A DNA stretch of 62,604 nucleotides from a virus (Duplodnaviria > Caudoviricetes), in the IMG/VR virus record IMGVR_UViG_3300044619_000874, positions 1 to 62,604 of that record; one strand, 5' to 3'. A program made the translations under genes and the position numbers. The notes below the pieces were generated by a model. The model did not search any database. It had not been told where the DNA came from and saw only the letters and a program-made list of their open reading frames with translations. Below are positions 929-58,853 of the stretch, one piece after another. The number at the start of each line of letters is the position of its first letter. The stretch's first letter is position 1.

Positions 929-937
929 TCACTGCGT

Positions 938-954
938 GCGGCTAGTAGTTCTAG
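938..954 (+). repeat. Dispersed motif GCGGCTAGTAGTTCT(AG), perfect copy
   Basis: Exact 15-mer also at 4326, 58864, 61281 and 62380. Confidence 0.9.
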
Positions 955-990
955 AGGGGGCGGGCAACTTCGCTCGCCCCCTCTTTGTTT
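954..990 (+). terminator. Intrinsic terminator-like hairpin
   Basis: GAGGGGGCGGGC/GCTCGCCCCCTC stem followed by TTTGTTT. Confidence 0.7.
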
Positions 991-1019
991 CCCAACACCT
1001 GTTTCCGGAGGACGATTCA

Positions 1020-2147
1020 ATGTTGACTGGCATCTTCTCACACCCGATGTGGTTCCTGTTCGTTGCAATGCAGGCCGGTATCCCGACGCACGTCGTCGGC
1101 ATGCCGGGCTGTGCCAAGACCGCACTGCACATGGCCTGTGCCAAGGCGATGGGTCGGCGGTTCATCCCGCTGATCGGATCGCAATGCACACCCGAGGACG
1201 TCGGTGGTCTGCCCGTCCCCGACATGGTGGCTCGGCTCTGCCGCATGCTGCCCATGTCGTGGGTCGAGGCGGTGCTCACGCCCGGTGGCTTCCTGTTCTT
1301 CGATGAGTGGGGCAACGTGTCGCCCGCCGTGCATGCCTCGCTGCTCACCGTGGTGCAGGACAAGCGAGTCGGCGACCATCACATCGACATCGACACGATC
1401 ATGGCGGCAGCGTCGAACCCAATCGACATCTGCCCCAATGGCACGCCGCTATCCCTGCCCACCACGAACAGGTTCTTCAACGCCAAGTGGCGGAACGACA
1501 CGCGAGCCTTCCTCAATGGGCTCGTCACCTGCGAGTGGGACGCACCCGAGTTGCCCATCCTGCCGGTGGACTGGAAGTCGTACGTCCCCAAGTGGGGCGG
1601 CATCGTCTCCTCGTTCCTCTCTCGCAACGAGGCGATGATCAACGTGCCACCCAAGGATGACACGACCCCCTCGTATCCAACCGAGCGGACGTGGCGTAAC
1701 GCGGTGATGTGCCTCGCCGCTGCGGACGCAGTCGGTGCGGACATGGATTCGGACACGACCAATGTCCGGCTCATGGTCGAGGGCAACGTGGGTGAGGTGG
1801 CGACCAGCCAGTTCGCACACTTCAAGCAGACGCTCGACCTCGTTGACCCGCTCGACATCGTCGACGGCAAGACGAAGTTCGTGCATCGGGATGACCGCCC
1901 CGACCTGACGATGACCGTGCTCGGTGCCGTGGCTACTGCCGTGTCGAACGCCACGACCTTCACGCCTGATCGATGGGATGCGGCGGCCATCTTCTTCGGG
2001 GAGATCGGTGCGACGGCACACCCCGAGATCGCACTCCGCTACACGCGGGTGCTGCTCGATGCGACGAAGACCTTCAAGCACTCGCCCAGTGCCAAGGTGA
2101 TGAAGCCGCTGATCGCGTTGAACAACTCGCTCAAGGTGAGCGGCTAG
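1020..2147 (+). CDS. MoxR-like AAA+ ATPase
   Basis: Walker A GMPGCAKT, Walker B FLFFDE, sensor AASNP, NRF arginine finger; GGAGG RBS before ATG 1020. Confidence 0.85.
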   Translation: MLTGIFSHPMWFLFVAMQAGIPTHVVGMPGCAKTALHMACAKAMGRRFIPLIGSQCTPEDVGGLPVPDMVARLCRMLPMSWVEAVLTPGGFLFFDEWGNVSPAVHASLLTVVQDKRVGDHHIDIDTIMAAASNPIDICPNGTPLSLPTTNRFFNAKWRNDTRAFLNGLVTCEWDAPELPILPVDWKSYVPKWGGIVSSFLSRNEAMINVPPKDDTTPSYPTERTWRNAVMCLAAADAVGADMDSDTTNVRLMVEGNVGEVATSQFAHFKQTLDLVDPLDIVDGKTKFVHRDDRPDLTMTVLGAVATAVSNATTFTPDRWDAAAIFFGEIGATAHPEIALRYTRVLLDATKTFKHSPSAKVMKPLIALNNSLKVSG

Positions 2148-2187
2148 TTGTTTTAGATACCCCGCTCGGCAACTGGGCCGGGCGGGG
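2140..2187 (+). repeat. Motif variant GCGGCTAGTTGTTTTAG overlapping the ATPase stop codon, plus hairpin
   Basis: 2 mismatches to the 15-mer; stem 2160-2170/2177-2187. Confidence 0.75.
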
Positions 2188-2215
2188 CACGACCATAAGC
2201 ACAAGGGGATATGCG

Positions 2216-3826
2216 ATGGACTCGATCAGACTCAAGGTCGCACAGTTCAGGACGATGGTGAAAGACATCCTGCCCTACTTCACGGGCTATGTGTACGGCA
2301 TGATCGCCACCGAGAAGCGTGGCATCGGCACGATGGCAGTCGATGAGCGGGGTCGTCTCTACTACGACCCGGCCCTCGTCGAGCGGGTCGATCTCAAGGG
2401 CGGTCGGTTCGTGATCTGTCACGAGGCACTGCACGTTGCACTCGGCCACGCCCCGCTGGCACGCCGGTTCCTCGGTGACCGGCCGACCCCGGCCATGCTG
2501 CGGCGATACAACCTCGCCGCCGACTGCGTGGTCAACGGCATCCTCCAGTCGTGGTGGCACGAGGCACCGAGCGAGGAGGTTCTCGGTGGCAAGTTGGTGA
2601 CGCACGTCGCCCTCGGCCTGCCGCCGTCGCTCACCGTGACGCAGTACTACGCCCTGCTCGAACAGCAAGACGATCAGAAGAAGCAGGAGCGTGAGGCTGC
2701 ACGCAAGCAGCAACGAGACAACGACCCGCGCCAGCGTGGCAAGGGCGAGGATGGCGATGGCATGGAGGACGAAGGTGATGAAGACCAAGAAGATGGTTCG
2801 GCTGATCGTGATGACGACGAAGAAGAACGTGGCGGCCAATCGGATCGGGGTGATCACGACTCCGAGGATGGCGAAGACGGTAGCGACGGCGATTCGGAAG
2901 GCGGCGGAGACGAATCGTCCGACGAAGAAGATGGTGTTCCAGATGGGGACGCTGCCGGAGAAGGAGATACCGAGCGCGAAGGGGACGATGACGGTGATAG
3001 CGGTAGCGACGAGGGCAGTGGCGGCTCGGATTCGCAGGCTGGCGATCAAGGCCGGGGCGACGAGGACGATGCCGACGGGGAAGCCGACGGGGGATGGGCT
3101 TGCCGAGGTGGCGGCGGTGCTGACGGCCAGCCTCGCGAGTACGAGGACGAAGGCGAAGGCGGGTGGAAGGATCGCGAGTACTCGATGACCGACCAGTTGG
3201 AGCAGCGGATCGAGGAGGCAGAGCAGTCCTCTCCCGGTTCGGTGCCCGGCTGCCTCAAGGACGCGGTCGGTCTGCGGCTCCGGCCGCAGGCTGACCCGTT
3301 CGACGTGCTGCGTGCCACGGTGGCACGGGCCATCGCCTCGCCGGTCGGTGCCCCCGACTACACGCTGCGGAAGTTCAGCCGCAGGCAGCAGGCCGACGGG
3401 CCTCGGCTGCGTGGCGTGAAGAAGGAGATGCCCAACGTGGTTGTGATCCTCGACACGAGCGGCTCGATGCATGGCGACCGTGTCGCGAAGGCGATGGGCG
3501 TCATCGCCAAGGCAGTGAGCCGACTCAAGTCGGTGAAGGTGGTGTGCTACGACGCCGACCTGCATGGACGCAGGACGGTGACCTCGATGGCTGCCTTCTC
3601 ATGGCAGGGTGGTGGCGGCACCAACATGGGGAAGGCCATCGAGCAGGTCGACAAAGAGGATCGGCCCGACGCCATCGTGCTGGTGACCGACCTCGAAACC
3701 CCGTGGCCGGAGCGTATGCCCCGGGCCCGGGTGGTGGTGGCTGCGGTTGACTCGAAACCCTATTGGCTGGAGCGCGTGCCCGGCTGGGTGAAACTGTGTG
3801 ACGTCTCGAAAGGAGGTGACCGATGA
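2216..3826 (+). CDS. vWA-domain protein with N-terminal HEXXH metallopeptidase-like domain (DUF2201-like)
   Basis: HEALH, long D/E/G-rich linker, MIDAS DTSGS, GGGGT, VLVTD. Confidence 0.85.
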   Translation: MDSIRLKVAQFRTMVKDILPYFTGYVYGMIATEKRGIGTMAVDERGRLYYDPALVERVDLKGGRFVICHEALHVALGHAPLARRFLGDRPTPAMLRRYNLAADCVVNGILQSWWHEAPSEEVLGGKLVTHVALGLPPSLTVTQYYALLEQQDDQKKQEREAARKQQRDNDPRQRGKGEDGDGMEDEGDEDQEDGSADRDDDEEERGGQSDRGDHDSEDGEDGSDGDSEGGGDESSDEEDGVPDGDAAGEGDTEREGDDDGDSGSDEGSGGSDSQAGDQGRGDEDDADGEADGGWACRGGGGADGQPREYEDEGEGGWKDREYSMTDQLEQRIEEAEQSSPGSVPGCLKDAVGLRLRPQADPFDVLRATVARAIASPVGAPDYTLRKFSRRQQADGPRLRGVKKEMPNVVVILDTSGSMHGDRVAKAMGVIAKAVSRLKSVKVVCYDADLHGRRTVTSMAAFSWQGGGGTNMGKAIEQVDKEDRPDAIVLVTDLETPWPERMPRARVVVAAVDSKPYWLERVPGWVKLCDVSKGGDR

Positions 3827-5262: not shown

Positions 5263-6042
5263 ATGAAGATTGCATACGGATACGGGCGGCACAGCACGAG
5301 CAAGCAGGCAGTGACTGCCGAGGTGCAGGAAGCGTCGGTGATGGATCAGTACGAGCGGCTGCTCAAACCCAAGGGCTACTCGTGGGGCGGCTGGTTCTAC
5401 GACGCCGCAGTGTCGGGCAGCAAGGACTTCAGCGACCGACCCGAGGGGGTGCGGGTGTACATGATGGCTGGCGAGGGCGACGCCGTGATCTGCCACAACT
5501 CCGACCGCATGTTCCGGTCGCAGGCTGATGCAGAGAAGACGGTGCTGCTGCTCCAGTCTCGGGGCGTGCAGATCGTGATGCCCGACCTGCCCTCGTTCGA
5601 GAAGGCTGACCCTCGGATGCTGGCTCGCATCCGGTTCGTCATCGCCCAGTGGGAGCGGGAGAAGATCGGCGAGCGCACCTCGTCTGGCATGCAACGCATG
5701 TCAGCCAAGGGCAAGAAGTTCGGTGGCCGTATCCAGTCGGTGCCACTCGGGTGGCGTAACACTGGCGGCGGCATCGCACCATGCCCGGAGGAGCGGGCGA
5801 GGATCGAGGAGATGGCCCGCATGCACGCCGAGGGTGCGTCGTTCGAGCGCATCTCGATGATCGTTTCCTACCCGCCCCACAACTGGCGTCGTCCGCTCGC
5901 CCGCAAGGGTGGCGGCGCATGGTCGAAGCGTTACGTCAGGCTGGCGATCAAGGCTCGGTCTCTGGGGTATCCTCGCTGCTACCTTTATGATCGGCAACAC
6001 AGAGTCGCAGTCTGTCAAGCGCAGCCAGCAGCCTGCCCTTGA
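5263..6042 (+). CDS. Serine recombinase (resolvase catalytic domain plus short recombinase DNA-binding domain)
   Basis: YGRHSTSKQ (catalytic Ser), DAAVSG, SDRMFRS, AQWEREKIGERT, PLGW; AGGAG RBS. Confidence 0.9.
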   Translation: MKIAYGYGRHSTSKQAVTAEVQEASVMDQYERLLKPKGYSWGGWFYDAAVSGSKDFSDRPEGVRVYMMAGEGDAVICHNSDRMFRSQADAEKTVLLLQSRGVQIVMPDLPSFEKADPRMLARIRFVIAQWEREKIGERTSSGMQRMSAKGKKFGGRIQSVPLGWRNTGGGIAPCPEERARIEEMARMHAEGASFERISMIVSYPPHNWRRPLARKGGGAWSKRYVRLAIKARSLGYPRCYLYDRQHRVAVCQAQPAACP

Positions 6043-12919: not shown

Positions 12920-13914
12920 CGACTTACTCCTTTGAAGGCCCACTCTGGAAACTGAAGGACGTTGATCTCGCCGTATCCGCTGGGCAGCCAGTGGCCGCTC
13001 TCTTTGCGGGCCTCGATCTCGTCGAGGTCGTCGGTGATCCACTGCTCGCACATGGCGACGAGCGGCTCGGGGAGTTCGCACACTTGGACTTGGTGCGATG
13101 GCGTCGTGGAGCAAGCCACGAACGTGAGGCGTTGGTCAGAGAGCCCAGCCGCAGCGGCGATCTGGGAGTACCAAGCGGAGGCGTAGTGGTAGCCGTGGTC
13201 GAGGCAGCCCCTCCACCACGATTCGAGTGGGCGGGCGTCGCGGCACGACTTCCAGTCCAGCAGCACGCCGCCGTGAGTGACGGCGTCGTAGCGGCAGCGG
13301 ATCAGGTGGCCGTCGGGTCGGCGATAGAACGCCGAGAGTTCGTGCTTCCAGATATCCTCGTAGAGGTCTCTCGCCATTGCGTTCGAGAAGAACTGCGAGA
13401 GGATCGCCTCGACGATGGCGAGGTTCTCTTCCGACGCGACGATGGCGTCAGGCCCCTGCTCATCACGCCACGCCTTCGCGGCCTTGGAGGAGGAGAGCCC
13501 GCCGCCTGCGGTGCGGAACTCCTCCGGTACCGAGACGAGGTGAGAGCGGTACCGGGTCGGGCCCAGTTCGAGGGCCGCGTGTACAAGTGTTCCGAGGTCG
13601 GTAGCCGCCGACGAGAAGGCCGGGCGGGTGCGAGCGATGTGTCGCTCGTGGAACCAAACCGGCCCGTGGTAGCGGAAGTCCCAGCCGATGGACTTCGAGG
13701 GGCAGGGGAGGGTATGGTAGACGTGGTTCGGCAGGCCCTCCACTAGGAGGGTCTGGCCGGGCTGCAACCCCTCAAGGGCGGCAAGAAGTTCCGCAAGAGT
13801 CGGGGCGACTGGATTCGAACCAGCGACCTCTACGTCCCGAACGTAGCGCGAACCCTCGCCGCCGGTCTCAAGGAGATCGGCCATGTCAGCACTGCTTGCA
13901 TCTGATTCAGTCAT
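12916..13914 (-). CDS. Exonuclease VIII/RecE-like PD-(D/E)XK exonuclease (DUF3799-like)
   Basis: GTLVHAALE, RCRYD, LDWKS, YHYASAWY; start codon uncertain (13914 or 13884). Confidence 0.85.
   Translation of the reverse strand: MTESDASSADMADLLETGGEGSRYVRDVEVAGSNPVAPTLAELLAALEGLQPGQTLLVEGLPNHVYHTLPCPSKSIGWDFRYHGPVWFHERHIARTRPAFSSAATDLGTLVHAALELGPTRYRSHLVSVPEEFRTAGGGLSSSKAAKAWRDEQGPDAIVASEENLAIVEAILSQFFSNAMARDLYEDIWKHELSAFYRRPDGHLIRCRYDAVTHGGVLLDWKSCRDARPLESWWRGCLDHGYHYASAWYSQIAAAAGLSDQRLTFVACSTTPSHQVQVCELPEPLVAMCEQWITDDLDEIEARKESGHWLPSGYGEINVLQFPEWAFKGVSR
13799..13850 (-). other. attP-like core: 3' portion of tRNA-Pro(CGG)
   Basis: CTACG-TT-CGG-GA-CGTAG anticodon arm, AGGTC, GCTGG-TTCGAAT-CCAGT T-arm, CGCCCCGA acceptor strand; no 5' acceptor strand or D-arm; about 120 bp from integrase. 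Confidence 0.85.
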
Positions 13915-13966
13915 TGGTATTCTCGCGACGAAAGGAGCAGTGTACAGAAGTTCAGTGGGGGAGTCA

Positions 13967-14797
13967 ATGATCGGGTTGGCAGAACGCTATCTATTGGGGA
14001 GGGACGTTTCTCGCGGATACGCGGGGAACATCAGAAGGACGGCGGCCAAGATGGATAGGGCGGGGATCACCCCTGCCAATATCAACGGGCCTGCGGTCAG
14101 CATGTGGCTCTCCTCCTTGAAAGCAAACGGTCTGTCGAGCGTGAGTATAGCGAGTGAGCGCCGTAGCGCAATCACAATCTGGAAGTTCGGCATAGAGGAC
14201 GGGTCGATCACTACACCCATCCGCCATGTCCTTCAGCCTCGTGTCACTCGTCGTGTCACTCGTGCCTTCGGACGCGATGATCTTACTGGTGCTGTCAAGC
14301 GTCTCAAAGAATTGATCCTGCCCGCGTTTCAGAGCGGTTGCTGTCGAAAGCAGTGGATCGAGGCTTGGATTTTCTACGTCTACGAAACCGGAGCGCGGTT
14401 CACCGACGCATACGAACTCCGTTCCGAAGCACTCGTTCCCGGCGGGGTTGGCTGGACTGCGAGCAAGACGGGACGGCCGGTCATCAAACGCCTGTCAGCG
14501 AGTACTTCAGATCGGCTGGCAGCACTAGCATCCCTGTCCCCCGACGGCACGGTGTTCAAGTGGGCCGTGTCGCGGCGGCATGCGTTCGCTGCGATCAGAG
14601 CGGTGTTCAAGCAGATCGGGCTGGATGGCGGAAGGACGCAATGGCTGCGCCGCAGCGGGGCAACGCACGCCGAGATGATCAAGAAAGGTGCGGCACGCGA
14701 GTACCTGTGCCACGCCACGCAGGGGCTGGCCGAATCCAACTACATAGATTTTACGCAGTTGCTACCCGAGTTGCCAGTTCCGCCCGGGATTGAGTGA
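13967..14797 (+). CDS. int: Tyrosine recombinase/integrase
   Basis: ETGARF (R1), SKTG (K), QWLRRSGAT (R2), YLCH, NYID (Tyr); SAM-like N-terminal domain. Confidence 0.85.
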   Translation: MIGLAERYLLGRDVSRGYAGNIRRTAAKMDRAGITPANINGPAVSMWLSSLKANGLSSVSIASERRSAITIWKFGIEDGSITTPIRHVLQPRVTRRVTRAFGRDDLTGAVKRLKELILPAFQSGCCRKQWIEAWIFYVYETGARFTDAYELRSEALVPGGVGWTASKTGRPVIKRLSASTSDRLAALASLSPDGTVFKWAVSRRHAFAAIRAVFKQIGLDGGRTQWLRRSGATHAEMIKKGAAREYLCHATQGLAESNYIDFTQLLPELPVPPGIE

Positions 14798-43565: not shown

Positions 43566-43910
43566 TCAGTCCCCCTTCTTGCTGCTTCGGGCCAGAACCT
43601 GAACAACCTGCGGCATAAGCGTGTTCAGACGCTTGAGAGCCTCGGTTGCCGGGTGGAACCGCCAGCAGCCCCACTGCCGCCATGCCGTGTTGTCGAGGAG
43701 GCCCGGGTCGTCGGCGTGCCGGACGCTGGGCTTCTCCACGAACCCGGTGTCGGGCGAGAAGGTCAGGATGTAGACCGTGTTCACTCCCGGCCTGCGGGAA
43801 ACCCAGCCGACGCACGGGTCAGATGGGTTCTGCGGGTTGTCGTAGAACAGAACCATGTCACCCAGTTCAACAGTCTGGGTTGGGAATTCACTGCCATTCG
43901 AGGCTGCCAA
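43566..43910 (-). CDS. Hypothetical protein
   Basis: 114 aa between terminase large subunit and portal. Confidence 0.6.
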   Translation of the reverse strand: MAASNGSEFPTQTVELGDMVLFYDNPQNPSDPCVGWVSRRPGVNTVYILTFSPDTGFVEKPSVRHADDPGLLDNTAWRQWGCWRFHPATEALKRLNTLMPQVVQVLARSSKKGD

Positions 43911-45588
43911 CGTAGTCCTCCTTGCTGGTAAGGCTCTCGGATTCCGGCCCTAGATACACGCAGGACGCAGGCCGGTTCTTATTGCGTCGCGCGAGGTAGT
44001 CAATTATCCACTTGGGTGTCGTGTCTGTCTCGTCCTTTTTCACCGGGAGGTGGTACCTCGGATTGGACGCGACGATGTACTCAAGGCACTGGCATGCATG
44101 CACTTCACCGCGAGTGTTCGGCTCGTCGCTGACAATGGACAAACCGTTCACGAAGTGCGTCTTCTTGCGGTACCGGCGCAACTCCTTCTCAAGGTTCGGG
44201 CACGCGCCCCGTAGCACTCGCAGCCTCGGAGTGCCGTCCGTGCGAATGTGCAGTGCGGTGCGAACCGCCGACGTTCGGGCCTGAATGTCGTCGCACCCAG
44301 CCAAGAACCCGGCCCCGGTAGTGCGGGAGCGCAGGTTGTAGTTCCGAAGTTGCTCCATGTACTGCTCCACCACCGCCCGGCCAGAGCCGATGTCGGTGAT
44401 CCGGCCGCCGTGCATGTCGATGATCCACTGGTAGAACGACTGCCCCTCGCACGCCTTGGCGAACCTCTCCCCGAAGATCGAGGCAGAGCACTGCCGGATA
44501 TACAGTTCGTCGTAGATCAGGATCATGGAGTTGTCGGGCGGGACGGCCGCAAACAGGGCGGCGGTCACGGCGTGCCCCGGGTCAACGGCGACGTAGCGCG
44601 TCCAGTCCTCCGGTATGGTCGCGCCATTCGGGAGTGCGCTCCGTTCTAGCCCGTGAATGGACATGGCGAAGTTGGGGTACACCATCACCGAGTCAGTGAT
44701 GAACTCGCCTTCGGCGCGCATTCGCAGGACGTCTTCGCCCTGTGCTGCCCACCGCTCGATCATCTTCGACTTCTCTTCTCCATCGATCCAAGCGTTATCG
44801 AGAAAGCGCAGCGTGAACTTCTTGATGCTGGGATTGGGGTCTCCCGCCTCTGCCGCCCTGTCGGCGCGCTCGGAGAGGCTCATCAGAGACTCCGACCGGG
44901 AGTGCGGCATGGCCGACCAGCACAGGCGGCCCTTGCGGTCAGCGAGACGAGCCTGCGCTTCGGCAAGGATGCTGTCGTTCCCGACGTCCTCGTCTAGGTG
45001 CAAGCGATCGCAAGAATAGCCCTGCGCAGGCTCGCCTTCAGCGGAGAAGAACTGAATCTTCCAGCCGTTGTGAAGTTCGATGTGGTTGCAGTAGTTGGCA
45101 GCCTTGAGCACCCACGAGATGCTCTTGATCATCCGGGGAGGGATCAGCGGTGGCGCAGGCTTGGCGAGGTGCTTCCGCGCGCTGTCCCGTGAGGGGTCAT
45201 AGGCCCGCCACTTATTCGTCTGCTCGTCCCGAATGATCTTAAACGCCCCTGCCTTCAGGAGGTACGGCACACACACCAGACCGATGTGCGTCCAGTTCCT
45301 CCCGATGATGACCAGCATGCCGTCCTTCTCGGGGTACTTGCCGTACGGGTCTTGACCTGTTGCGGCGCGAGCGTCCTCGACGAATGTGCAGAGAGACTTC
45401 CCCGATCTGTTGCCGCCGATCACGAGCACTTCCGAGGTGGTGCATGCGTGAACCTCCTCCTGCAACGCCGACGGCGTGTAGAGTTTGAGGGCCTCGATCC
45501 GCCGCTCGTTGATCTCCGACTGTAGTTCGCGGAGACGGTCTTGGGCGAACTTACTCGGCTTGGGAGTTGGCCGGGGCAACGGCTGCAT
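43888..45588 (-). CDS. terL: Terminase large subunit
   Basis: GGNRSGKS (Walker A), LHLDED (Walker B), VAVDPG and HACQCLEY nuclease motifs. Confidence 0.92.
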   Translation of the reverse strand: MQPLPRPTPKPSKFAQDRLRELQSEINERRIEALKLYTPSALQEEVHACTTSEVLVIGGNRSGKSLCTFVEDARAATGQDPYGKYPEKDGMLVIIGRNWTHIGLVCVPYLLKAGAFKIIRDEQTNKWRAYDPSRDSARKHLAKPAPPLIPPRMIKSISWVLKAANYCNHIELHNGWKIQFFSAEGEPAQGYSCDRLHLDEDVGNDSILAEAQARLADRKGRLCWSAMPHSRSESLMSLSERADRAAEAGDPNPSIKKFTLRFLDNAWIDGEEKSKMIERWAAQGEDVLRMRAEGEFITDSVMVYPNFAMSIHGLERSALPNGATIPEDWTRYVAVDPGHAVTAALFAAVPPDNSMILIYDELYIRQCSASIFGERFAKACEGQSFYQWIIDMHGGRITDIGSGRAVVEQYMEQLRNYNLRSRTTGAGFLAGCDDIQARTSAVRTALHIRTDGTPRLRVLRGACPNLEKELRRYRKKTHFVNGLSIVSDEPNTRGEVHACQCLEYIVASNPRYHLPVKKDETDTTPKWIIDYLARRNKNRPASCVYLGPESESLTSKEDYVGSLEWQ

Positions 45589-50277: not shown

Positions 50278-50718
50278 TTACTTGAAACTCTGCGTCCAAT
50301 AGATGGATCGCCCGTTCTGCACAGCCCCCACGCCGATCTCGGAGTAGGAGGGGCTGAGAATGTTCCTGCGATGACCGGGGCTATTCATCCAGTCCCGCAT
50401 CACCACGTCAGGCGTCGGCTGGCCGTAGGCGACGTTCTCGCCGAAGCCGTTATTGCTGTGGTACATGCGACGCTGCCGGGCTTGGACGCCCGACCAGCCG
50501 CGTGCCACGGTCATCAACTTCTCGCTGATCTTCAGTGGTCGTAGGCCACGAGCGCGACGCTCGGCGTTGACCTTGGCTACGACTTCGTTCTCGTAGGCTG
50601 ACCCGACATACACGCGACGACACACGCCGCCGTCGCACTCGGTCTTGATGAGCCTGTTCTCTGCCGCCGCTGTTCCGCAGAGTGCGAAAGCGGCAAGCAC
50701 CAATACGGTGCGCCTCAT
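50278..50718 (-). CDS. Secreted CAP/SCP-domain protein
   Basis: Signal peptide; VNAERRARGLRPL, GENVAYG, WMNSPGHRRNIL, IGVG, YWTQ. Confidence 0.9.
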   Translation of the reverse strand: MRRTVLVLAAFALCGTAAAENRLIKTECDGGVCRRVYVGSAYENEVVAKVNAERRARGLRPLKISEKLMTVARGWSGVQARQRRMYHSNNGFGENVAYGQPTPDVVMRDWMNSPGHRRNILSPSYSEIGVGAVQNGRSIYWTQSFK

Positions 50719-50778
50719 TGGGCCTCCTTGCTCGTTAGGGGCTGACATGCTTATGGAGCAGGGAGCCATAACACCGAC

Positions 50779-52092
50779 ATGGGAAATCCGAACGACGCAT
50801 GGATGCAGGAAGGCGCAGCGCACGCCCGGCGCGGGCTCGTCGACATGATTGGGCGACACATGCCCGATCACGACCCGGAGGAGTTGGCTGATATCCTGAT
50901 CTCTCGCTCCGGCGAGCCGATGTACTGGGACGTCGTTGAGGCCCTTGACGGCGAGATCGCGCAGTCCGCCCAAGGCCACCCGCGCGGGATCACCGCCGAC
51001 GAGCGGGATGCGCTGGGCGGCAATCGTTTCATGCCGGACTACCTGCTCGGGCCGGGCGACCAGAAGGCTTACGCCGCCCTGCGGGACTCCAACCTCCTGA
51101 ATGCAGCGGTCGGCAGGCGGCCGGTCGCAAGCATCGACGACCTGATCGGCGGGGCGAACTACCGCGAGGGCGAGGAGGCCAAACCTCTTGAACAGTTCAG
51201 CCACGGGTCTGCGCCGCCGGGGTTTGAGCGCGACTGGAACCTCGCAAACGCTGGGCACGACTACAACACCGCCTCACAGATGCCCACGCGGCACTCGACG
51301 TTCTTCGGGGGCTCGCCCTACCCGCAGCACCAGTGGATCGGCCAGCCGTCCACGCTGCTCAACTCGTGGAACAACAACCGCGACGGCGTGCTCGGTCAGG
51401 CGATGGGCGCGTTCGATAAGTGGGGCAGGGCGGCTAAGGCTGCTGGCAGGACTCCCGGTGCGTGGGGTGGCGAGACGCACGGCATCGACGGGACGGTCGG
51501 CGCGGTAGCGAAGTGGGGCGCAAACTTCCCGCCGCAACTAGAGAAAGCGGAGCAGGCGGAGTGGGGCGGTAATGCAGTCGGTCGAGGCAGCCCGCTCGTG
51601 CCGAACGGACTGCGAGATCCGCAACTCCGGCAGGACTCAATCGACAATCTAAAACACTTCACCGCCCAAGCATCAGAGACGCCCGACGTCTTCACCTACG
51701 GCAAGTCGGTGGGTCGTGGCTACTCGCCTGCTCTCGGGTGGGCTTTTGATATGGGCACCGAAATCGCCGACCCGCTTACGGCCGCCTCGCTCGGTGCATC
51801 GTTCGCCCCGAAGGTCATGTTCAATGTGGCGTCCGGTGGGATTGGACGAGGCGTGCTGCGGTCACTTGCCGACGACGCCCCGAGGTTCCTCGCAAAGGAG
51901 GCGGGACAGGAGGCGGCCTCGCCGATCACTTGGGGGGTCGGGGCACTCACGTTCCCGAAGATGGCTGGAGCACTCACTGGCGAGAACGTCACGCCAGCCG
52001 ATCAGGCCAAGGCTGCCGCCGAGATCGAGGCGCAGCACAGGCAGGCGAATGCTGCCGTGCAGAACATTCGCCAGATGAAGAAAGATTATTAG
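50779..52092 (+). CDS. Hypothetical protein in inverted orientation
   Basis: 437 aa, GGAG upstream, phage-like codon usage. Confidence 0.65.
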   Translation: MGNPNDAWMQEGAAHARRGLVDMIGRHMPDHDPEELADILISRSGEPMYWDVVEALDGEIAQSAQGHPRGITADERDALGGNRFMPDYLLGPGDQKAYAALRDSNLLNAAVGRRPVASIDDLIGGANYREGEEAKPLEQFSHGSAPPGFERDWNLANAGHDYNTASQMPTRHSTFFGGSPYPQHQWIGQPSTLLNSWNNNRDGVLGQAMGAFDKWGRAAKAAGRTPGAWGGETHGIDGTVGAVAKWGANFPPQLEKAEQAEWGGNAVGRGSPLVPNGLRDPQLRQDSIDNLKHFTAQASETPDVFTYGKSVGRGYSPALGWAFDMGTEIADPLTAASLGASFAPKVMFNVASGGIGRGVLRSLADDAPRFLAKEAGQEAASPITWGVGALTFPKMAGALTGENVTPADQAKAAAEIEAQHRQANAAVQNIRQMKKDY

Positions 52093-53767: not shown

Positions 53768-54354
53768 TTCTCCATCGAGCGGAACAGGGCTGCGTCGGCC
53801 GACTCCAGACGACGCTCAAGGGCCTCGACCTGCTTTGCCAAGGACTTGCGTTCCTTGTATGCGAGCACGCACTGGCGGAGTTGCTTGATCACCCGGGCAG
53901 CCCGGTCGCAGATGGCCCGCATCTGGTTGGCGTCGAACTCGTGGCAGTACTTCTCCAGCACCTCGACGATGTCGAACCGATCCTGCGGGATCGCCTCTCG
54001 GTACTCGCTGGTCAGGGGAGCGGCCAGCCCGCCTTGATAAGGCAGTCCTTCAACCGCTCGATCTCCAGCCGGAGTTTCTGGTTCTGCTGCCGCAACGAGT
54101 CCAGTTGCTCGGACGTAGACGGGGGTGTGCTTTCCGACGTAGGCCCCGGTGATATTGAAGGCTGCATACTCTTCTGCGTCGTCGTAAGACATGCCGTCCC
54201 TCTCGACCATGATCTGGACGATCTTGTCGATGGAGTACACGGCGGAGATGGGGCGTAGGTGGTTGTCGGTGAGCCCGATGAAGGCTTCGTCCCAACCGTC
54301 AGCGAGGAGCACGTCCTCGTCGATCTCGGCTATCGCTTCACGGTCGATTGGCAT
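53764..54354 (-). CDS. Conserved phage hypothetical protein
   Basis: ADGWDEAFIG...EEYAAFNITGAYVG.HTP. Confidence 0.65.
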   Translation of the reverse strand: MPIDREAIAEIDEDVLLADGWDEAFIGLTDNHLRPISAVYSIDKIVQIMVERDGMSYDDAEEYAAFNITGAYVGKHTPVYVRATGLVAAAEPETPAGDRAVEGLPYQGGLAAPLTSEYREAIPQDRFDIVEVLEKYCHEFDANQMRAICDRAARVIKQLRQCVLAYKERKSLAKQVEALERRLESADAALFRSMEK

Positions 54355-54785
54355 GCCTTGGTCTCCTCGGCGGCAATGGCTTCGGCTCGGGCTCGCTCAT
54401 ACACGGCAGATGCTTCTTCGGGGGTGTCGTATGAACCGAGGCATCGATTGCAGTGCATCGCCATGAACTTCTCGCCCCTCCCGTAGACGCCGGTCGGCAG
54501 GTCTCGGTATCGGTGGCGAATGTTCAGCGACTGACCCCGGAGCGTCGTGGCCCGGAGGTTCGAGATTCGGTTGTCCCACGGCACGCCGTTCTTGTGGTCG
54601 ATGGTGCCGGGCGTCGGCCAGTAACCGTGAGCCAGAAACCAAACATGGTCGTGCTGCCGAATCCTCTTGGCCCCATCTGAACGATGGATGTAGCCACTCT
54701 TGGTCTTGCACCAGAGCATCGGGCACACCTGCTCGGCGTACTCGGGATCGACGACGTACTTCCAAGTGCTGCGATTCCGGGGCAT
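54330..54785 (-). CDS. HNH homing endonuclease (HNH plus AP2-like domain)
   Basis: IDHKNG...DNRISNLR; GVY...LGSYDTPEEA. Confidence 0.85.
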   Translation of the reverse strand: MPRNRSTWKYVVDPEYAEQVCPMLWCKTKSGYIHRSDGAKRIRQHDHVWFLAHGYWPTPGTIDHKNGVPWDNRISNLRATTLRGQSLNIRHRYRDLPTGVYGRGEKFMAMHCNRCLGSYDTPEEASAVYERARAEAIAAEETKACQSTVKR

Positions 54786-54816
54786 GGCGATACTCCGTTC
54801 GGGATTCGCGAACTGG

Positions 54817-54855
54817 AAACGCGGCCCGCAGGTCTTGGGCTTCCTGCGGGCCGCG
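54817..54855 (-). terminator. Hairpin after ssb
   Basis: GCGGCCCGCAGG/CCTGCGGGCCGC stem followed by TTT on - strand. Confidence 0.55.
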
Positions 54856-54879
54856 CCCCAACACCTGCGTCCTTGCAGG

Positions 54880-55251
54880 CTAAAATCCATGCCACGAGTC
54901 ATCCGACTCGGACTTCGGGCCACCGGCACCGGGCTGACGCTTCGGCCACTTCAGCGAGATGCCGACGTCATCAGCCATGACGGTCACCGAGGTTCGCTCG
55001 ACGCCGTCCTTCTCGTACTTCTCGACTTCGAGCCGCCCGGTCACCATGACCCGGTCGCCCTTGCCGACCTTCTCGGCGACGAGAGCGGCCATCTCGTCGA
55101 AGCACAGGACGTTGACCCATGAAGTTACGGGGTCACGACCCTCGATCTTCTTGGTAGAGGCCACGCTGAAGCGGCACATGTCTTTGCCGCCCTTGGTCTG
55201 CTTGAGTTCAGGGGCCTGACCGACATTGCCGAACACTTCTGCCTTGATCAT
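54880..55251 (-). CDS. ssb: Single-stranded DNA-binding protein
   Basis: GNVGQAPEL, FSVA, KGDRVMVTGRL, acidic C-terminus ending in F. Confidence 0.92.
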   Translation of the reverse strand: MIKAEVFGNVGQAPELKQTKGGKDMCRFSVASTKKIEGRDPVTSWVNVLCFDEMAALVAEKVGKGDRVMVTGRLEVEKYEKDGVERTSVTVMADDVGISLKWPKRQPGAGGPKSESDDSWHGF

Positions 55252-55294
55252 CTGAATCATCTCCTTGGTGTTGGGGACTGACCTAACGTGGCCC

Positions 55295-55321
55295 ATCATA
55301 GCGCGGTGGTCAAGCGTTCAG
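55295..55321 (-). promoter_or_regulatory. Promoter-like element CTGAACGCTTGACCACCG-N3-TATGAT upstream of ssb
   Basis: 18-mer identical to 62458-62475 on the opposite strand; -10-like hexamer follows. Confidence 0.6.
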
Positions 55322-55420
55322 TCGGACGCAATATCCCCGCGCAAAACGCATGTTCGTGATGTTTGCGATCGGGCCATAAGCCTTGCACCGAGCACCTTCC
55401 CCCCAACACTGAGGTGCTGC

Positions 55421-56215
55421 ATGCTTCGATCAATCGCGTTCGCTCTCGCGCTGGCCGGTGCCGCAGTACTCGGTCTCGCCTTCTCGCTGTTCGGTGCTGG
55501 CATGGCACTCGCTGGCACGATCACCGGCACTGCCCAGACGTTCGACTCCGAGATTCGGCAGCGGCTGAGTGAGTACGAGGATTGGGGTGTCTGGAATGCA
55601 GGCACCCTGCAAGCCAACGTCACCAGCGGGGCAGGGCGGATCAACTACTCCCTGACGGCCTCGGCACCGGCTACGCCACTGGCTCGTGATCCCGGCGTGG
55701 CGATCTTCAACACGGGGAACGGGTACTACGTCGGCGGGCTCTCCTACGTCACCAACAGTGCCGAGGGGAAGGGCTTCACCTTGACCGTGCCATATCAGTA
55801 CGCCAATGGGAACCGGCTCGACCTGTGGCTGATGACCAATGGGCCTGTCTCGGCAGACATCACCGCCTCTGAACTCTTGGGGTCAGGGACTACGGTGAGC
55901 CTTTCTCCGTACCAGAACTACATCGTGTCGTTCATCTCGACGGGGCTGACCGAAGACCTGACCGTGAGCATGGTGGGCCGGGGCAACTTCAACAGCGCAC
56001 AGGGGCAGATGTCATTCGGTGCCGCAGCACTTTCCCCTGTGGTGGTGCCCGAGCCGGAGTACTGGCTGGCGTTCCTGCTGCTCATCGGCGGCTTCGTGGC
56101 ATACCGGGTGGTCGAGACGATCTGGTGGTTCTACGACACGGTGCGGACGCTGGAAGACGACTTCGAGGGACGAAAACTCCCCGAGGGTGACTTGGAAGAC
56201 CGCTGGCTGCCGTAG
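55421..56215 (+). CDS. Secreted PEP-CTERM-type protein
   Basis: Signal peptide, Thr/Ser/Gly-rich body, VPEPEY followed by TM helix and a cytoplasmic tail. Confidence 0.75.
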   Translation: MLRSIAFALALAGAAVLGLAFSLFGAGMALAGTITGTAQTFDSEIRQRLSEYEDWGVWNAGTLQANVTSGAGRINYSLTASAPATPLARDPGVAIFNTGNGYYVGGLSYVTNSAEGKGFTLTVPYQYANGNRLDLWLMTNGPVSADITASELLGSGTTVSLSPYQNYIVSFISTGLTEDLTVSMVGRGNFNSAQGQMSFGAAALSPVVVPEPEYWLAFLLLIGGFVAYRVVETIWWFYDTVRTLEDDFEGRKLPEGDLEDRWLP

Positions 56216-56336
56216 CACTTCGGATCGAGAGGGTAGCCACCGACCGCCAGTGGCGTGATTCACTCCCTCCGATCTGTGGCCGACGCCTGACGCAGCCTGA
56301 CAACGGCCGGGCGCAGGGGCGGAGTTGGCCTGCGGC

Positions 56337-56429
56337 TCACACAGCCGGGCCGTCAATGAACTGCATCGGGAGGAACTCGTCCTCCTCGGCTTCCCACTCG
56401 TCCTCGTCGCAGATGTGCCACCCAGCCAT
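56337..56429 (-). CDS. Acidic micro-protein, 30 aa
   Basis: MAGWHICDEDEWEAEEDEFLPMQFIDGPAV; GGAGG RBS; translated by hand. Confidence 0.5.
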   Translation of the reverse strand: MAGWHICDEDEWEAEEDEFLPMQFIDGPAV

Positions 56430-56572
56430 GCTCGCCTCCAGTGAGAGGCTTATGGCTCGACCGGCCTAAGTCGGGAAATCGATTCTGAGGGCCCTAGCGT
56501 GCGTTCTGGCGGGTTCGGCCACCCGGTGTACCTGCGTACACCAATCGGGCTTCTGGGGCGATCCTAGCGCGC

Positions 56573-57112
56573 CTACGGGCCATCTACGATCGGCAGGCAC
56601 ATCTGGCCCGGCAGAAACTTGGAAGGCTCGGGCTGGAGGGGCTCCGGGGCAACCACGGGCACCTCGTAGTTCTTCCGGGCCTCCGCGTAGATGTGGCCGA
56701 TGTGGTTGTCGTACCACGGCCTGCCCGTCCGGCTCCTGCTCCCCCAGCGGTTCAGTGCGCTGGCAATCTTCCCAAACGACCAGCACTCGTCGTCGCGGAG
56801 CATTCGGACGACCCGGCGAACCGCCTGCTCTAAGGGGTTCTCGATCAGCCTGCTATCGCGGGTGACCTCGTACCCGTAGGGCGGTCGGCCGATGCGGCGG
56901 TTCTCATCGCGAGCCCGCTCTTGACCCTCGCGGACGAGAGTGGCGACGCCGTCAGTGCGGTTACGACGAAGGTCGTGCGTCTTGTCGTGGCATGTCGGGC
57001 ACAGCGGCACAGTGCGAGTCCCGCCGCGCGACTGCGGGATGACGTGATGCTGCTCCTCGGCCGGGGAGCCGCACTCAAAGCAGCGATCGGGGTGTATGAC
57101 CAGCGCATCCAT
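56573..57112 (-). CDS. HNH-like domain fused to serine-recombinase DNA-binding (recombinase) domain
   Basis: CFEC...HHVIP.SRGG...LCPTCH, then GRPPYGY...SFGKIASALN..G.RSRTGRPW. Confidence 0.75.
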   Translation of the reverse strand: MDALVIHPDRCFECGSPAEEQHHVIPQSRGGTRTVPLCPTCHDKTHDLRRNRTDGVATLVREGQERARDENRRIGRPPYGYEVTRDSRLIENPLEQAVRRVVRMLRDDECWSFGKIASALNRWGSRSRTGRPWYDNHIGHIYAEARKNYEVPVVAPEPLQPEPSKFLPGQMCLPIVDGP

Positions 57113-57228
57113 GCGCTATGGGTTTCGCGCAGCGTGTCAAGTTTGGCAACAGGTTTAGCGCGCTACAGGGGGCGAGATATTTTGAGCGTCAACTCGTGGT
57201 GGCATGTATGTATGGGCCAGCCGCCGCC

Positions 57229-57260
57229 GGGGGGCTCGGGGCGGGGCGGGGCGGGGCGGG
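57229..57260 (+). repeat. G-run tract (GGGGC)n, potential G-quadruplex
   Basis: GGGGGG-CTC-GGGG-C-GGGG-C-GGGG-C-GGGG-C-GGG. Confidence 0.7.
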
Positions 57261-57471
57261 CAGCGGCGTGGCGGGCCTGTTTTTCCGCAGCGAACGCGGG
57301 GCACCGTGGGAACCTTCGGTGCCCCAAGGGCGTACCGCGATCCCAGATTGTGGCATTCCCGCCCGCATTACTTATGGCGCGACATTCGCACCGCACTACA
57401 TTCCGCCGTCGGATTTCTTCGCACGCCCCACGTTCGCGGGCACCGCTCGATTCCCCGCGAGTTATCGCCGT

Positions 57472-57488
57472 GCGGCTAGGTGTTTTGG
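57472..57488 (+). repeat. Motif variant GCGGCTAGGTGTTTTGG
   Basis: 3 mismatches to the 15-mer; precedes first early gene. Confidence 0.55.
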
Positions 57489-57521
57489 ATCGATGCAACA
57501 CCCCCAACGGAGACGACGACG

Positions 57522-57755
57522 ATGATCCACAACCGACTGACAGTGAGCCTCGACCGGGACGACGTCACCATGATCGTGGCCGCCCTCGCAACGATGCGAG
57601 TGGACGCCGAAACCAACGCGGCCAACATGGCGGCCGTCGATGATGACATGCGAGACGATGACGCCATCGCCGATGCCCGGGCAGTGGTCGCCGACTTGCA
57701 ACGGCTGAGCGACCGACTCGTGTCCGCTGCGGTCTACGCCGCGAGATACCGCTGA
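57522..57755 (+). CDS. Hypothetical acidic helical protein
   Basis: GGAG RBS, 77 aa. Confidence 0.6.
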   Translation: MIHNRLTVSLDRDDVTMIVAALATMRVDAETNAANMAAVDDDMRDDDAIADARAVVADLQRLSDRLVSAAVYAARYR

Positions 57756-57830
57756 GCGGCTAGTCGTTCTGCCCCCCCTCAACACCTTGACGCGATGCGG
57801 CCCGTAGCAGGGCGTTCCTGCTGCGGGCCG
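57756..57830 (+). repeat. Motif GCGGCTAGTCGTTCT plus hairpin
   Basis: 1 mismatch; stem 57798-57811/57817-57830. Confidence 0.8.
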
Positions 57831-57851
57831 TTCGCATTTGGAGACTCTTCG

Positions 57852-58853
57852 ATGATCGCTCTCAACACCGTGATGCCACGCCTGCCCAAGATGGGCAAGC
57901 CTCCCCGGGCTCGTACTGCCAAGGCCAAGGGGCCGATCTTCCCGCGTCGTGCTGCGATGGAACTGGCACAGTTCGTGATGGATGCCCCGTCTGCCGCCGC
58001 CATCGCCGCGAAGTGTCGATGGATGATCGAAGACATGGTCGCCCGGTTTCCCGGCCGTGGGCCGCACGTTTCGGGCTCGTGGGAATGGATGCTCGCACGC
58101 ATCGCCGACGCCATCGACAACGGCACCGATGCCTTCACGCTCATCAGCATGGACGGCAACACGAAGTTGCCCTTCGCGTCGTGGTCATGCCTGCCTGTCG
58201 TGACGTGCCCGGGCATGGGTGCGTGCGGGAAGTTCTGCTACAGCCTGCGGGCATGGCGGAACCCATCGGCCTACGGTCGCCAACTGTGGGCGACCATCGT
58301 GCTGCGGTTCTATCGCCGCCGCATCATCGATGCGTGGAAGGCCCTCCCCGCTGGCATCGTCGTGCGGCTGTACGTTGACGGTGACTTCGACTCGGCCGAG
58401 ACGCTGCGGTTCTGGTTCAACCTGATCGCCCAACGGCCCGACCTGCGGGTCTACGGGTACTCGAAATCGTGGCACCTGCTGATCGATTGGCACCGTGCGG
58501 GACATACGTTCCCGGCCAACTACTACGTCAACGTGTCGAGCGGGTCGAAGTACGACAACGACCCTGCGATGCGGCAGGCCATGCTCGACCTGCCCGTGGC
58601 TCGCGGCGAGTTCATCGTCGTGAAGGTCAAGGGTGAGGGCACGCTCTGGCCGAAGGGTTTCCAGCGGTACCAGTCCAAGGCATACCACGAGGCGGTCTAC
58701 GCCGAGGCCAAGCGTCTCGGCATCAAGGGCGTGTCGTGCGGCGGTGACTGCGGTGCGTGCGGCAACGGCACCCACTGGTGCGGTGCGATCCAGCCCAACG
58801 GCACCGTGAAGCAGTCGCTGATCGGCCTGCCCATCCTTATCGGTGCCCACTGA
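57852..58853 (+). CDS. gp88-like Cys-cluster (radical-SAM-like) protein
   Basis: GNTKL, TCPGMGACGKFCY, RLYVDGDF, YGYSK, CGGDCGAC. Confidence 0.75.
   Translation: MIALNTVMPRLPKMGKPPRARTAKAKGPIFPRRAAMELAQFVMDAPSAAAIAAKCRWMIEDMVARFPGRGPHVSGSWEWMLARIADAIDNGTDAFTLISMDGNTKLPFASWSCLPVVTCPGMGACGKFCYSLRAWRNPSAYGRQLWATIVLRFYRRRIIDAWKALPAGIVVRLYVDGDFDSAETLRFWFNLIAQRPDLRVYGYSKSWHLLIDWHRAGHTFPANYYVNVSSGSKYDNDPAMRQAMLDLPVARGEFIVVKVKGEGTLWPKGFQRYQSKAYHEAVYAEAKRLGIKGVSCGGDCGACGNGTHWCGAIQPNGTVKQSLIGLPILIGAH

Follow-up and report, generated by a model that had tools for sequence, protein, structure and literature searches.

What does a phage protein do when a nuclease-like head sits where a serine recombinase would carry its catalytic domain? 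The question is raised by a gene, here called HNH-Rec, at 56573..57112 on the minus strand of the IMG/VR virus record IMGVR_UViG_3300044619_000874 (Duplodnaviria; Caudoviricetes). The entire record of 62,604 bp, classed as linear and with a CheckV completeness of 100, was analyzed and is referred to below as the window. HNH-Rec begins with an ATG and encodes 179 aa plus a stop codon. An earlier note, made from the sequence alone, had proposed that its product is a site-specific nickase or binder for a repeated 15-mer, a packaging helper, or a directionality factor or inhibitor of the serine recombinase encoded at the other end of the region. We predict that HNH-Rec is a mobile, homing-type, free-standing, and modular site-specific HNH endonuclease with a targeting module derived from a serine recombinase, and we give this reading a probability of about 0.55.

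Domain anatomy of HNH-Rec

Pfam searches placed two domains in the protein, both above their cut-offs: HNH (PF01844) at residues 11-47 (E 5.7e-5, 23.6 bits; cut-off 21.4) and Recombinase (PF07508) at residues 96-141 (E 3.5e-4, 21.2 bits; cut-off 21.1), the latter covering positions 5-48 of a 102-position profile. In PHROGs, residues 61-141 matched phrog_95 ("integrase", of the serine-integrase family) at profile positions 227-307 of 651 (E 4.4e-9). The resolvase catalytic domain, PF00239, had no Pfam match in HNH-Rec, and the HNH occupies its place. An AlphaFold2 model built with a 61-sequence alignment as input reached a mean pLDDT of 85.8.

The head is an HNH/His-Me finger (residues 9-47; 56972..57088, on the minus strand like all the parts that follow), delimited by Pfam, by a conserved motif, and by the model. 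Its residue pattern reads C11xxC14, H22 H23, G30 G31 T R T34 V P L C38xxC41 H42...H46. In the model, strands 20-23 and 34-37 and helix 39-45 form a beta-beta-alpha unit in which strand 1 ends at the catalytic His and the helix carries a metal-binding His, as in beta-beta-alpha-metal nucleases. A phmmer comparison with PDB sequences aligned the HNH domains of IscB and McrA to residues 9-48 and opened a 4-residue gap exactly at their Asn; the earlier note had therefore been correct in calling the loop GGTRTVPLC (residues 30-38) Asn-less. Because the middle Asn of the canonical H-N-H is absent by these alignments, HNH-Rec is an atypical His-Me finger. The HNH Asn is structural and varies across the His-Me superfamily, so its absence lowers the claim to a canonical HNH and leaves the claim to a His-Me nuclease untouched. 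The search of defence-system models brought up no more than a type IV restriction enzyme model, matched weakly through the HNH motif (E 6e-4).

Behind the head, the model continues with helix 56-69, a hairpin at 81-91, and helices 93-107, 113-122, and 135-149, followed by a low-confidence tail. Residues 56-80 (56873..56947) are a remnant of recombinase helix E plus a linker that ends in GRPPYG (PPYGY is at residues 77-81), as seen in the modeled helix, the recombinase alignment, and the phrog_95 match. Residues 81-149 (56666..56872) form a recombinase-type helix-turn-helix (HTH) subdomain, the N-terminal half of PF07508, identified by Pfam, the model, and Foldseek. In the alignment, homology to small serine recombinases is seen from the C-terminal half of helix E ("ER..I..T..GL") onward, through the linker and into the HTH, over a stretch of the form "ER..I..RT..GL...G..GG.P.G". 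The top Foldseek matches in the PDB were DNA-bound large serine recombinases, namely 9y66 (E 3.9e-4), Bxb1 9iu8 (rmsd 2.2 A across 86 columns), and 4kis. The protein then ends with a Pro-rich, low-confidence linker (residues 150-165; 56618..56665; pLDDT 62-70) that is variable in the alignment of relatives, and with the C-terminal tail FLPGQMCLPIVDGP (residues 166-179; 56576..56617), which resembles a beta-clamp-binding motif.

The anatomy given in the earlier note, a resolvase domain replaced by an Asn-less zinc HNH and followed by a helix-E-like segment, PPYGY, and a recombinase-type HTH, is thus borne out at each part. A large-type full recombinase domain with zinc-ribbon and coiled coil was not found, the match to PF07508 being confined to the profile positions given above. 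Without a catalytic domain, the remainder of the recombinase domain, or a zinc-ribbon, HNH-Rec does not qualify as a serine recombinase.

A viral family and its neighboring recombinases

An exhaustive HMMER search over 1.84 billion representative proteins returned 1361 representatives at E<=1e-3 and 526 at E<=1e-10, the majority of the matches being 135-170 aa long and spanning query residues 10-140. On these sequence counts, the joining of an HNH to a recombinase HTH exceeds chance and is no one-off. Residues C11, E13, H22, H23, G30, G31, C38, and H46 are invariant in the 61 aligned members, and C14, C41, H42, and T34 nearly so. The full motif, CxxC...HH...GG-x6-CxxCH...H, is kept in 143 of the 150 best representatives and its core, HH...GG-x6-CxxCH...H, in 145, with two of the five misses N-terminally truncated; the loop from GG to Cys has six residues in 145/145 and contains any Asn in five of them. 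The short Asn-less loop is thus characteristic of the family, with selection acting on the histidines of catalysis and metal binding. Some members carry two to four recombinase-HTH repeats like beads on a string (P0006, P0005, and P0026). Separately, one viral contig encodes two tandem HNH-Rec paralogues (L017:4120-5184), and an ESM Atlas viral cluster joins an HNH to the resolvase HTH_7, maybe a parallel fusion (score 0.78, a lead only).

In IMG/VR, 310 loci encode a relative of HNH-Rec, and the G+C content ranges from 0.32 to 0.70 across the 80 loci that we fetched. A degenerate DNA pattern for the HNH core matched 71 places in IMG/VR versus seven in 596 Gb of bacterial and archaeal genomes, all seven in metagenome-assembled genomes, and no relative of the window's protein was found in cellular genomes. 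The ESM Atlas clusters of the family are 94-100% viral and are called "hypothetical protein"; no functional name for the family was seen in the sources consulted, their entries being hypothetical or nameless. With four family members as tblastn queries at 80% query coverage, the full-length fusion was absent from 50,697 GenBank phage records, where the matches were to integrase DNA-binding domains or to HNH genes, each separately. As sampled by these sequence searches, the family is large and virus-restricted, its members coming almost only from uncultured phages. No phage nearly identical to that of the window was found in GenBank.

The window encodes a serine recombinase of its own, a 259-aa protein at 5263..6042 on the plus strand (Pfam Resolvase, E 2.9e-22; phrog_95 and phrog_125). 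It has a resolvase domain, helix E, and a recombinase-type HTH, is without zinc-ribbon or coiled coil, and is conserved in the syntenic relatives L002 and L003. Neither in the window nor in these two relatives did the HNH-Rec module give a BLAST match to the recombinase of the same genome, with which it shares only the fold type. The window also holds a tyrosine-integrase-like ORF at 13883-14797 (phrog_1, E 2.4e-9; no Pfam match).

A survey of 123 ORFs around 42 nonredundant HNH-Rec loci showed diverse neighbors, the commonest PHROGs being NinG (9), NinB (8), serine integrase phrog_95 (5), and DNA invertase (4). A resolvase domain was encoded in 10 of the 46 HNH-Rec records searched, and the other 36 had no resolvase-domain gene at all; among records at least 90% complete, 6 of 14 had one. 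No baseline was measured, and we therefore claim no enrichment. At some loci, the two genes are close neighbors: in L004, L020, and a group made up of L021, L022, L025, L028, L041, and L050, a serine recombinase of 220-280 aa lies at most two genes from HNH-Rec and has the same C-terminus of helix E, linker, and HTH. Just 2 nt separate the ORFs in L020, where HNH-Rec is downstream. The HNH-Rec modules match those of the neighboring recombinases with 106 bits and 56% identity in L004, 103 bits and 61% identity in L020, and 45-75 bits in the L021 group. When 230 modules were compared, those of L004 and L020 each had their closest non-self relative in the adjoining recombinase, which ranked ahead of every other HNH-Rec. 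This similarity between neighbors points to module capture or to co-evolution with the adjacent recombinase. In a tree of 95 DNA-binding modules, made by a quick method and leaving out H_L020, recombinase modules fell in six places among the nuclease modules with weak support. The starred branches force just one origin; repeated module capture is therefore suggested by the tree and is put no more firmly than that. As for the L020 record itself, it is 15,858 bp long, has direct terminal repeats, and encodes a ParA-like ATPase near the recombinase and HNH-Rec; it looks plasmid-like or satellite-like rather than like a full phage.

An exchanged cassette and how it may be read

HNH-Rec is the first gene of a leftward operon. 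Downstream of it follow a small acidic ORF of 30 aa (56337..56429, minus strand; kept in L011, similar in L094), a plus-strand ORF, SSB, a second HNH gene, and then head and terminase genes. As the earlier note had observed, HNH-Rec is divergent from the early region, whose plus-strand genes wrap the record ends to the small serine recombinase, and it lies near a G-tract (57229-57260), with the nearest 15-mer at 57472.

The most telling comparison came from L011, which is nearly the same phage as the window, with neighboring proteins mostly 88-99% identical. Its HNH-Rec allele is nevertheless only 37% identical in amino acid sequence and 53.1% identical in nucleotides over the ORF. Upstream, nucleotide identity is 94.9% at 57178-57544 and drops to 72.3% at 57113-57177, the 65 bp before the ATG; downstream, it is 53.1% at 56504-56575 and returns to 92.8% at 56337-56503. 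The exchanged unit thus comprises the ORF, ~65 bp upstream, and ~70 bp downstream (56504..57177), a clean cassette exchange with sharp boundaries. L002 and L003 carry alleles 48-50% identical to that of the window at the same position, and L094, a more distant syntenic relative, has no HNH-Rec between its GP88 and SSB homologues. With three alleles in four phages and absence from the fifth, HNH-Rec is an accessory gene of this clade. Sporadic presence, allele exchange among close relatives, and recombination boundaries at the gene are what is looked for in a homing gene, and by analogy HNH-Rec behaves like free-standing homing endonuclease genes (HEGs). Nuclease genes are described as marking exchange boundaries in phages, and HEGs as modular "beads on a string," in PMC10448857.

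Under the homing reading, the recombinase-type module would read a specific DNA site, and the helix-E remnant and minor-groove linker would hold the HNH head beside that site, roughly at the position of the recombinase catalytic domain, where it would nick or cut at or near the site read. HNH-Rec lacks the N-terminal half of helix E, through which dimers form, and is for this reason probably a monomer; a nickase or sequential cutter is the more likely mode of action. Repair of the cut from the gene-carrying genome would then spread or swap the cassette, and in the window's clade the QMCLPI-type tail would tether the enzyme to the host sliding clamp.

This last step concerns the C-terminus of the window's subclade, whose members end in a Pro-rich linker and a tail of the form (F)LPGQ(K/M)(T/C)LPI, with QMCLPI at residues 170-175 of the window's protein. 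The tail is conserved at the C-terminus of 9 of the 162 fetched proteins, all of this subclade; most family members are ~140 aa long and have none. The consensus of the bacterial clamp-binding motif is given as QL[S/D]LF or QxxLF, with QLSLPL in Hda (PMC12309361). When modeled with the Escherichia coli beta clamp, the tail took the peptide pocket with a score of 0.67, against 0.00 for the best of three controls; in the calibration, 58 of 80 solved complexes scored as high, as did 2 of 110 mismatched pairs, figures that apply only approximately here, as we supplied our own alignment. The modeled contacts join tail residues 167-177 to clamp residues 152, 155, 172, 174-177, and 242-247, and further to 278, 320, 344, 346, and 360-366. 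The model supports binding, but clamp-peptide complexes have already been solved and the E. coli clamp is a stand-in, so the modeled pass shows likeness only; on that footing, the sliding clamp of the host may be where the clade's tail anchors the enzyme.

Several findings weigh against the homing reading or parts of it. With the canonical Asn absent, a head with this loop type is a putative nuclease. We found no near-identical genome with an empty site, L094 being too distant to define one. The gene stands at one fixed position in four of the five clade members, which fits a fast-evolving resident gene as well. As to the tail, the L011 allele lacks it, and it is therefore dispensable at this locus; in the clamp models, at least 53% of contacts recur between runs, the partner pLDDT is only 46-48, and the pass with the stand-in clamp may reflect memory of solved complexes.

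Other readings of the same facts have to be weighed. One is that the nuclease is a weapon: it would mimic the serine-recombinase module of a rival element, be it a satellite, a prophage, or a co-infecting phage, and cut the rival's recombination site, with allele swaps acting as arms-race switches of specificity. A precedent is described in PMC8263062, where Odn (Gp88) of phage ICP1 is a chimeric, HEG-type origin-directed nuclease whose DNA-binding domain is 42% identical to that of the satellite RepA_N; having copied this domain, Odn cuts where the RepA_N protein binds, at the satellite origin. Domain swapping between HEGs and satellite genes is also reported (PMC10448857). The window's module is unlike that of its own recombinase, so any recombinase-type target would be foreign, and the alleles are exchanged between near-identical phages, as such a weapon would have it. 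On the other hand, no rival element or matching recombinase was identified for the window, and the recombinases that do match, in L004, L020, and the L021 group, are encoded next door in the same record rather than in a rival. We regard this reading as unlikely.

A second reading makes HNH-Rec a noncutting regulator, an autorepressor or early/late switch bound at the divergent promoter region, with the HNH reduced to a zinc knuckle. Its place at the head of the leftward operon, with the early genes running the other way, would suit such a role, as would the exchange of ~65 bp upstream along with the ORF, as if the protein bound its own promoter; I-TevI, moreover, is described as acting both as nuclease and as repressor (PMC10448857). 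Yet His22, His23, His42, and His46 are conserved together with the zinc cysteines in 143-145 of the 150 relatives, the syntenic L094 manages without the gene, and no operator-like repeat stood out convincingly in 56400-57300. This reading, too, seems improbable to us. In the wider region, 56200-57600, we found no sigma-70 promoters or intrinsic terminators, and the lone Rfam match in 55000-58500, to BjrC68, fell below threshold (23.9 bits versus a gathering score of 39) and was treated as chance.

Distinctly unlikely is a clamp-tethered nickase that starts or redirects phage replication or recombination together with SSB, Erf, an exonuclease, a helicase, and the host polymerase. The clamp-binding-like tail conserved in the subclade, the operon common to HNH-Rec and SSB, and the presence in the window of Erf, a PD-(D/E)XK nuclease, and a helicase, with no polymerase seen, would all agree with it. 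Against it, the L011 allele is tailless, L094 carries no HNH-Rec at that place, and the tail is missing from most of the family.

It is very unlikely that HNH-Rec works at the sites of the window's own recombinase, whether as partner to that enzyme, as competitor, or as directionality factor. The module has the architecture of small serine recombinases, the genes are adjacent and share a module in L004, L020, and the L021 group, and a resolvase gene is present in 6 of the 14 complete records. Against this stand the missing BLAST match between the modules in the window, L002, and L003, the ~10.7 kb that separate the two genes in the window, and the 36 of 46 records that have no resolvase gene. 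The proposal in the earlier note of a directionality factor or inhibitor of 5263-6042 is unsupported on these same grounds.

Most improbable of all is that HNH-Rec binds or nicks the repeated 15-mer, or that it helps in packaging (cos/terminase): the gene lies ~360 bp from the first 15-mer copy and HNH proteins that assist terminases exist, but the 15-mer is limited to the clade and unchanged in L011 despite the 37%-identical allele, TerL (43888-45588) is ~11 kb away, and only 2 of the 123 neighboring ORFs are large terminases.

Of the site-specific nickase or binder foreseen in the earlier note, the general idea fits the favored reading of a homing-type nuclease, but the 15-mer as its target is unsupported. 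The 15-mer, of the type GCGGCTAGTAGTTCTG, has eight plus-strand copies in the early region at <=3 mismatches; a motif scan placed it at 57472, 57756, 58864, 59082, 61281, 62380, 938, 2140, and 4326. It stands right after early-gene stop codons, always on the plus strand, and four copies precede a GC-rich hairpin and a T run. The motif is a candidate promoter, processing site, or antitermination signal. Among the 80 HNH-Rec loci scanned, only L002, with the variant CGGCTTGTAGTTCTG, was clearly above chance (five core-motif hits); 15 other loci gave ~20 hits in total versus ~17 expected by chance over all 80 (our own estimate). L011 keeps an identical first copy. The 15-mer is limited to the window's phage clade, and nothing ties it to HNH-Rec.

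The G-tract (57229..57260, plus strand; found by a regex scan) is of the G4 type, with G6 ahead of four G4 runs that have 1-nt loops, and occupies the divergent intergenic region outside the exchanged cassette. L011 has a near-identical tract at the equivalent place, with the same GGGGC repeats and a differing 5' end, L002 has a shorter one at the equivalent place, and L094 has none.

Other genes of the window deserve a brief record. The second free-standing HNH gene (54330-54929, minus strand; Pfam HNH_3, phrog_99) lies between SSB and the next gene, where L011 has 138 bp versus 547 bp in the window; it is therefore an insertion in the window. The plus-strand ORF embedded in the minus-strand operon (55265-56215) has a signal-like N-terminus and a C-terminal "VPEP" with a hydrophobic segment and is 91-98% conserved in L011; a by-eye impression of a PEP-CTERM protein was dropped, as it had no Pfam or PHROG match. 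In the early region, 936-3826 (plus strand) holds a MoxR-type AAA ATPase gene and then a DUF2201 metallopeptidase/VWA gene. The product of 50278-51258 (minus strand) has a C-terminal CAP/cysteine-rich secretory domain (Pfam E 4.3e-16) and the PHROG label "sporulation protein."

HNH-Rec beside known systems

Modular phage nucleases are known, and the serine-recombinase-derived reading module would be the new part. In the papers searched, we found no description of such a module on a phage nuclease and no report of a homing endonuclease with a sliding-clamp-binding motif; a clamp tail on a site-specific nuclease would be unusual. A narrower proposal, which we put forward tentatively and at low odds, is that HNH-Rec proteins are recombinase-site-directed nucleases with allele-swapped specificity cassettes, clamp-coupled in the window's clade. 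The HNH head would be delivered to a DNA site recognized by a recombinase because the module was copied from such a recombinase, and in at least two lineages the adjoining recombinase gene is even now the module's closest match. Sitting at the position of the catalytic domain, the head would cut at or near the crossover point, near-identical phages would trade the alleles as specificity cassettes, and the clamp tail of the window's clade would couple cutting to replicating DNA.

If this is true, selfish or anti-rival nucleases would have a new way of gaining targets, and nature would offer a template for nickases targeted through the DNA-binding domains of recombinases. If the module keeps the site specificity of the recombinase, HNH-Rec proteins would cut at recombination sites, which would bear on how HEGs gain targets, on conflict between phages and mobile elements, and on mosaic boundaries. 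The adjacent recombinase and nuclease pairs of L004 and L020 offer a direct test case.

Among known systems, the I-HmuI type comprises modular, free-standing phage HNH homing endonucleases with reading modules of the NUMOD/IENR type. HNH-Rec resembles these in its small HNH head, linker, and separate sequence-reading module, and in being phage-borne and sporadic with exchange boundaries at the gene. It differs in that the module is the helix E, linker, and HTH of a serine recombinase, that the HNH loop is shortened and Asn-less, and that it comes with no defined intron or target. The HNH-Rec proteins of L004 and L020 are like Odn in having a module (56-61% identical) in common with another protein, here the neighboring recombinase. 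Odn, as described in PMC8263062, differs in its T5orf172 head, its replication-initiator module, and its satellite donor; the donor-like gene of HNH-Rec is adjacent in the same record, and for the window's copy no donor was identified. I-TevI has a comparable "beads on a string" order of nuclease, linker, and HTH, but its head is GIY-YIG and it is intron-encoded (PMC10448857).

With the large serine recombinases (Bxb1, the LI integrase 4kis, and 9y66), HNH-Rec shares the C-terminus of helix E, the linker, and the first subdomain of the recombinase domain, whereas the resolvase domain, Ser nucleophile, zinc-ribbon, and coiled coil are not part of it. The small phage serine recombinases (~220-280 aa) come closer, as their C-terminal architecture is that of HNH-Rec from mid helix E onward; they differ at the N-terminus, where they have a resolvase domain and HNH-Rec an HNH. 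That head, in turn, shares the zinc-HNH signature CxxC...HH...CxxCH...H with the best PDB sequence matches, IscB and McrA, whose loops are 4 residues longer, including the Asn, and whose partner domains are others.

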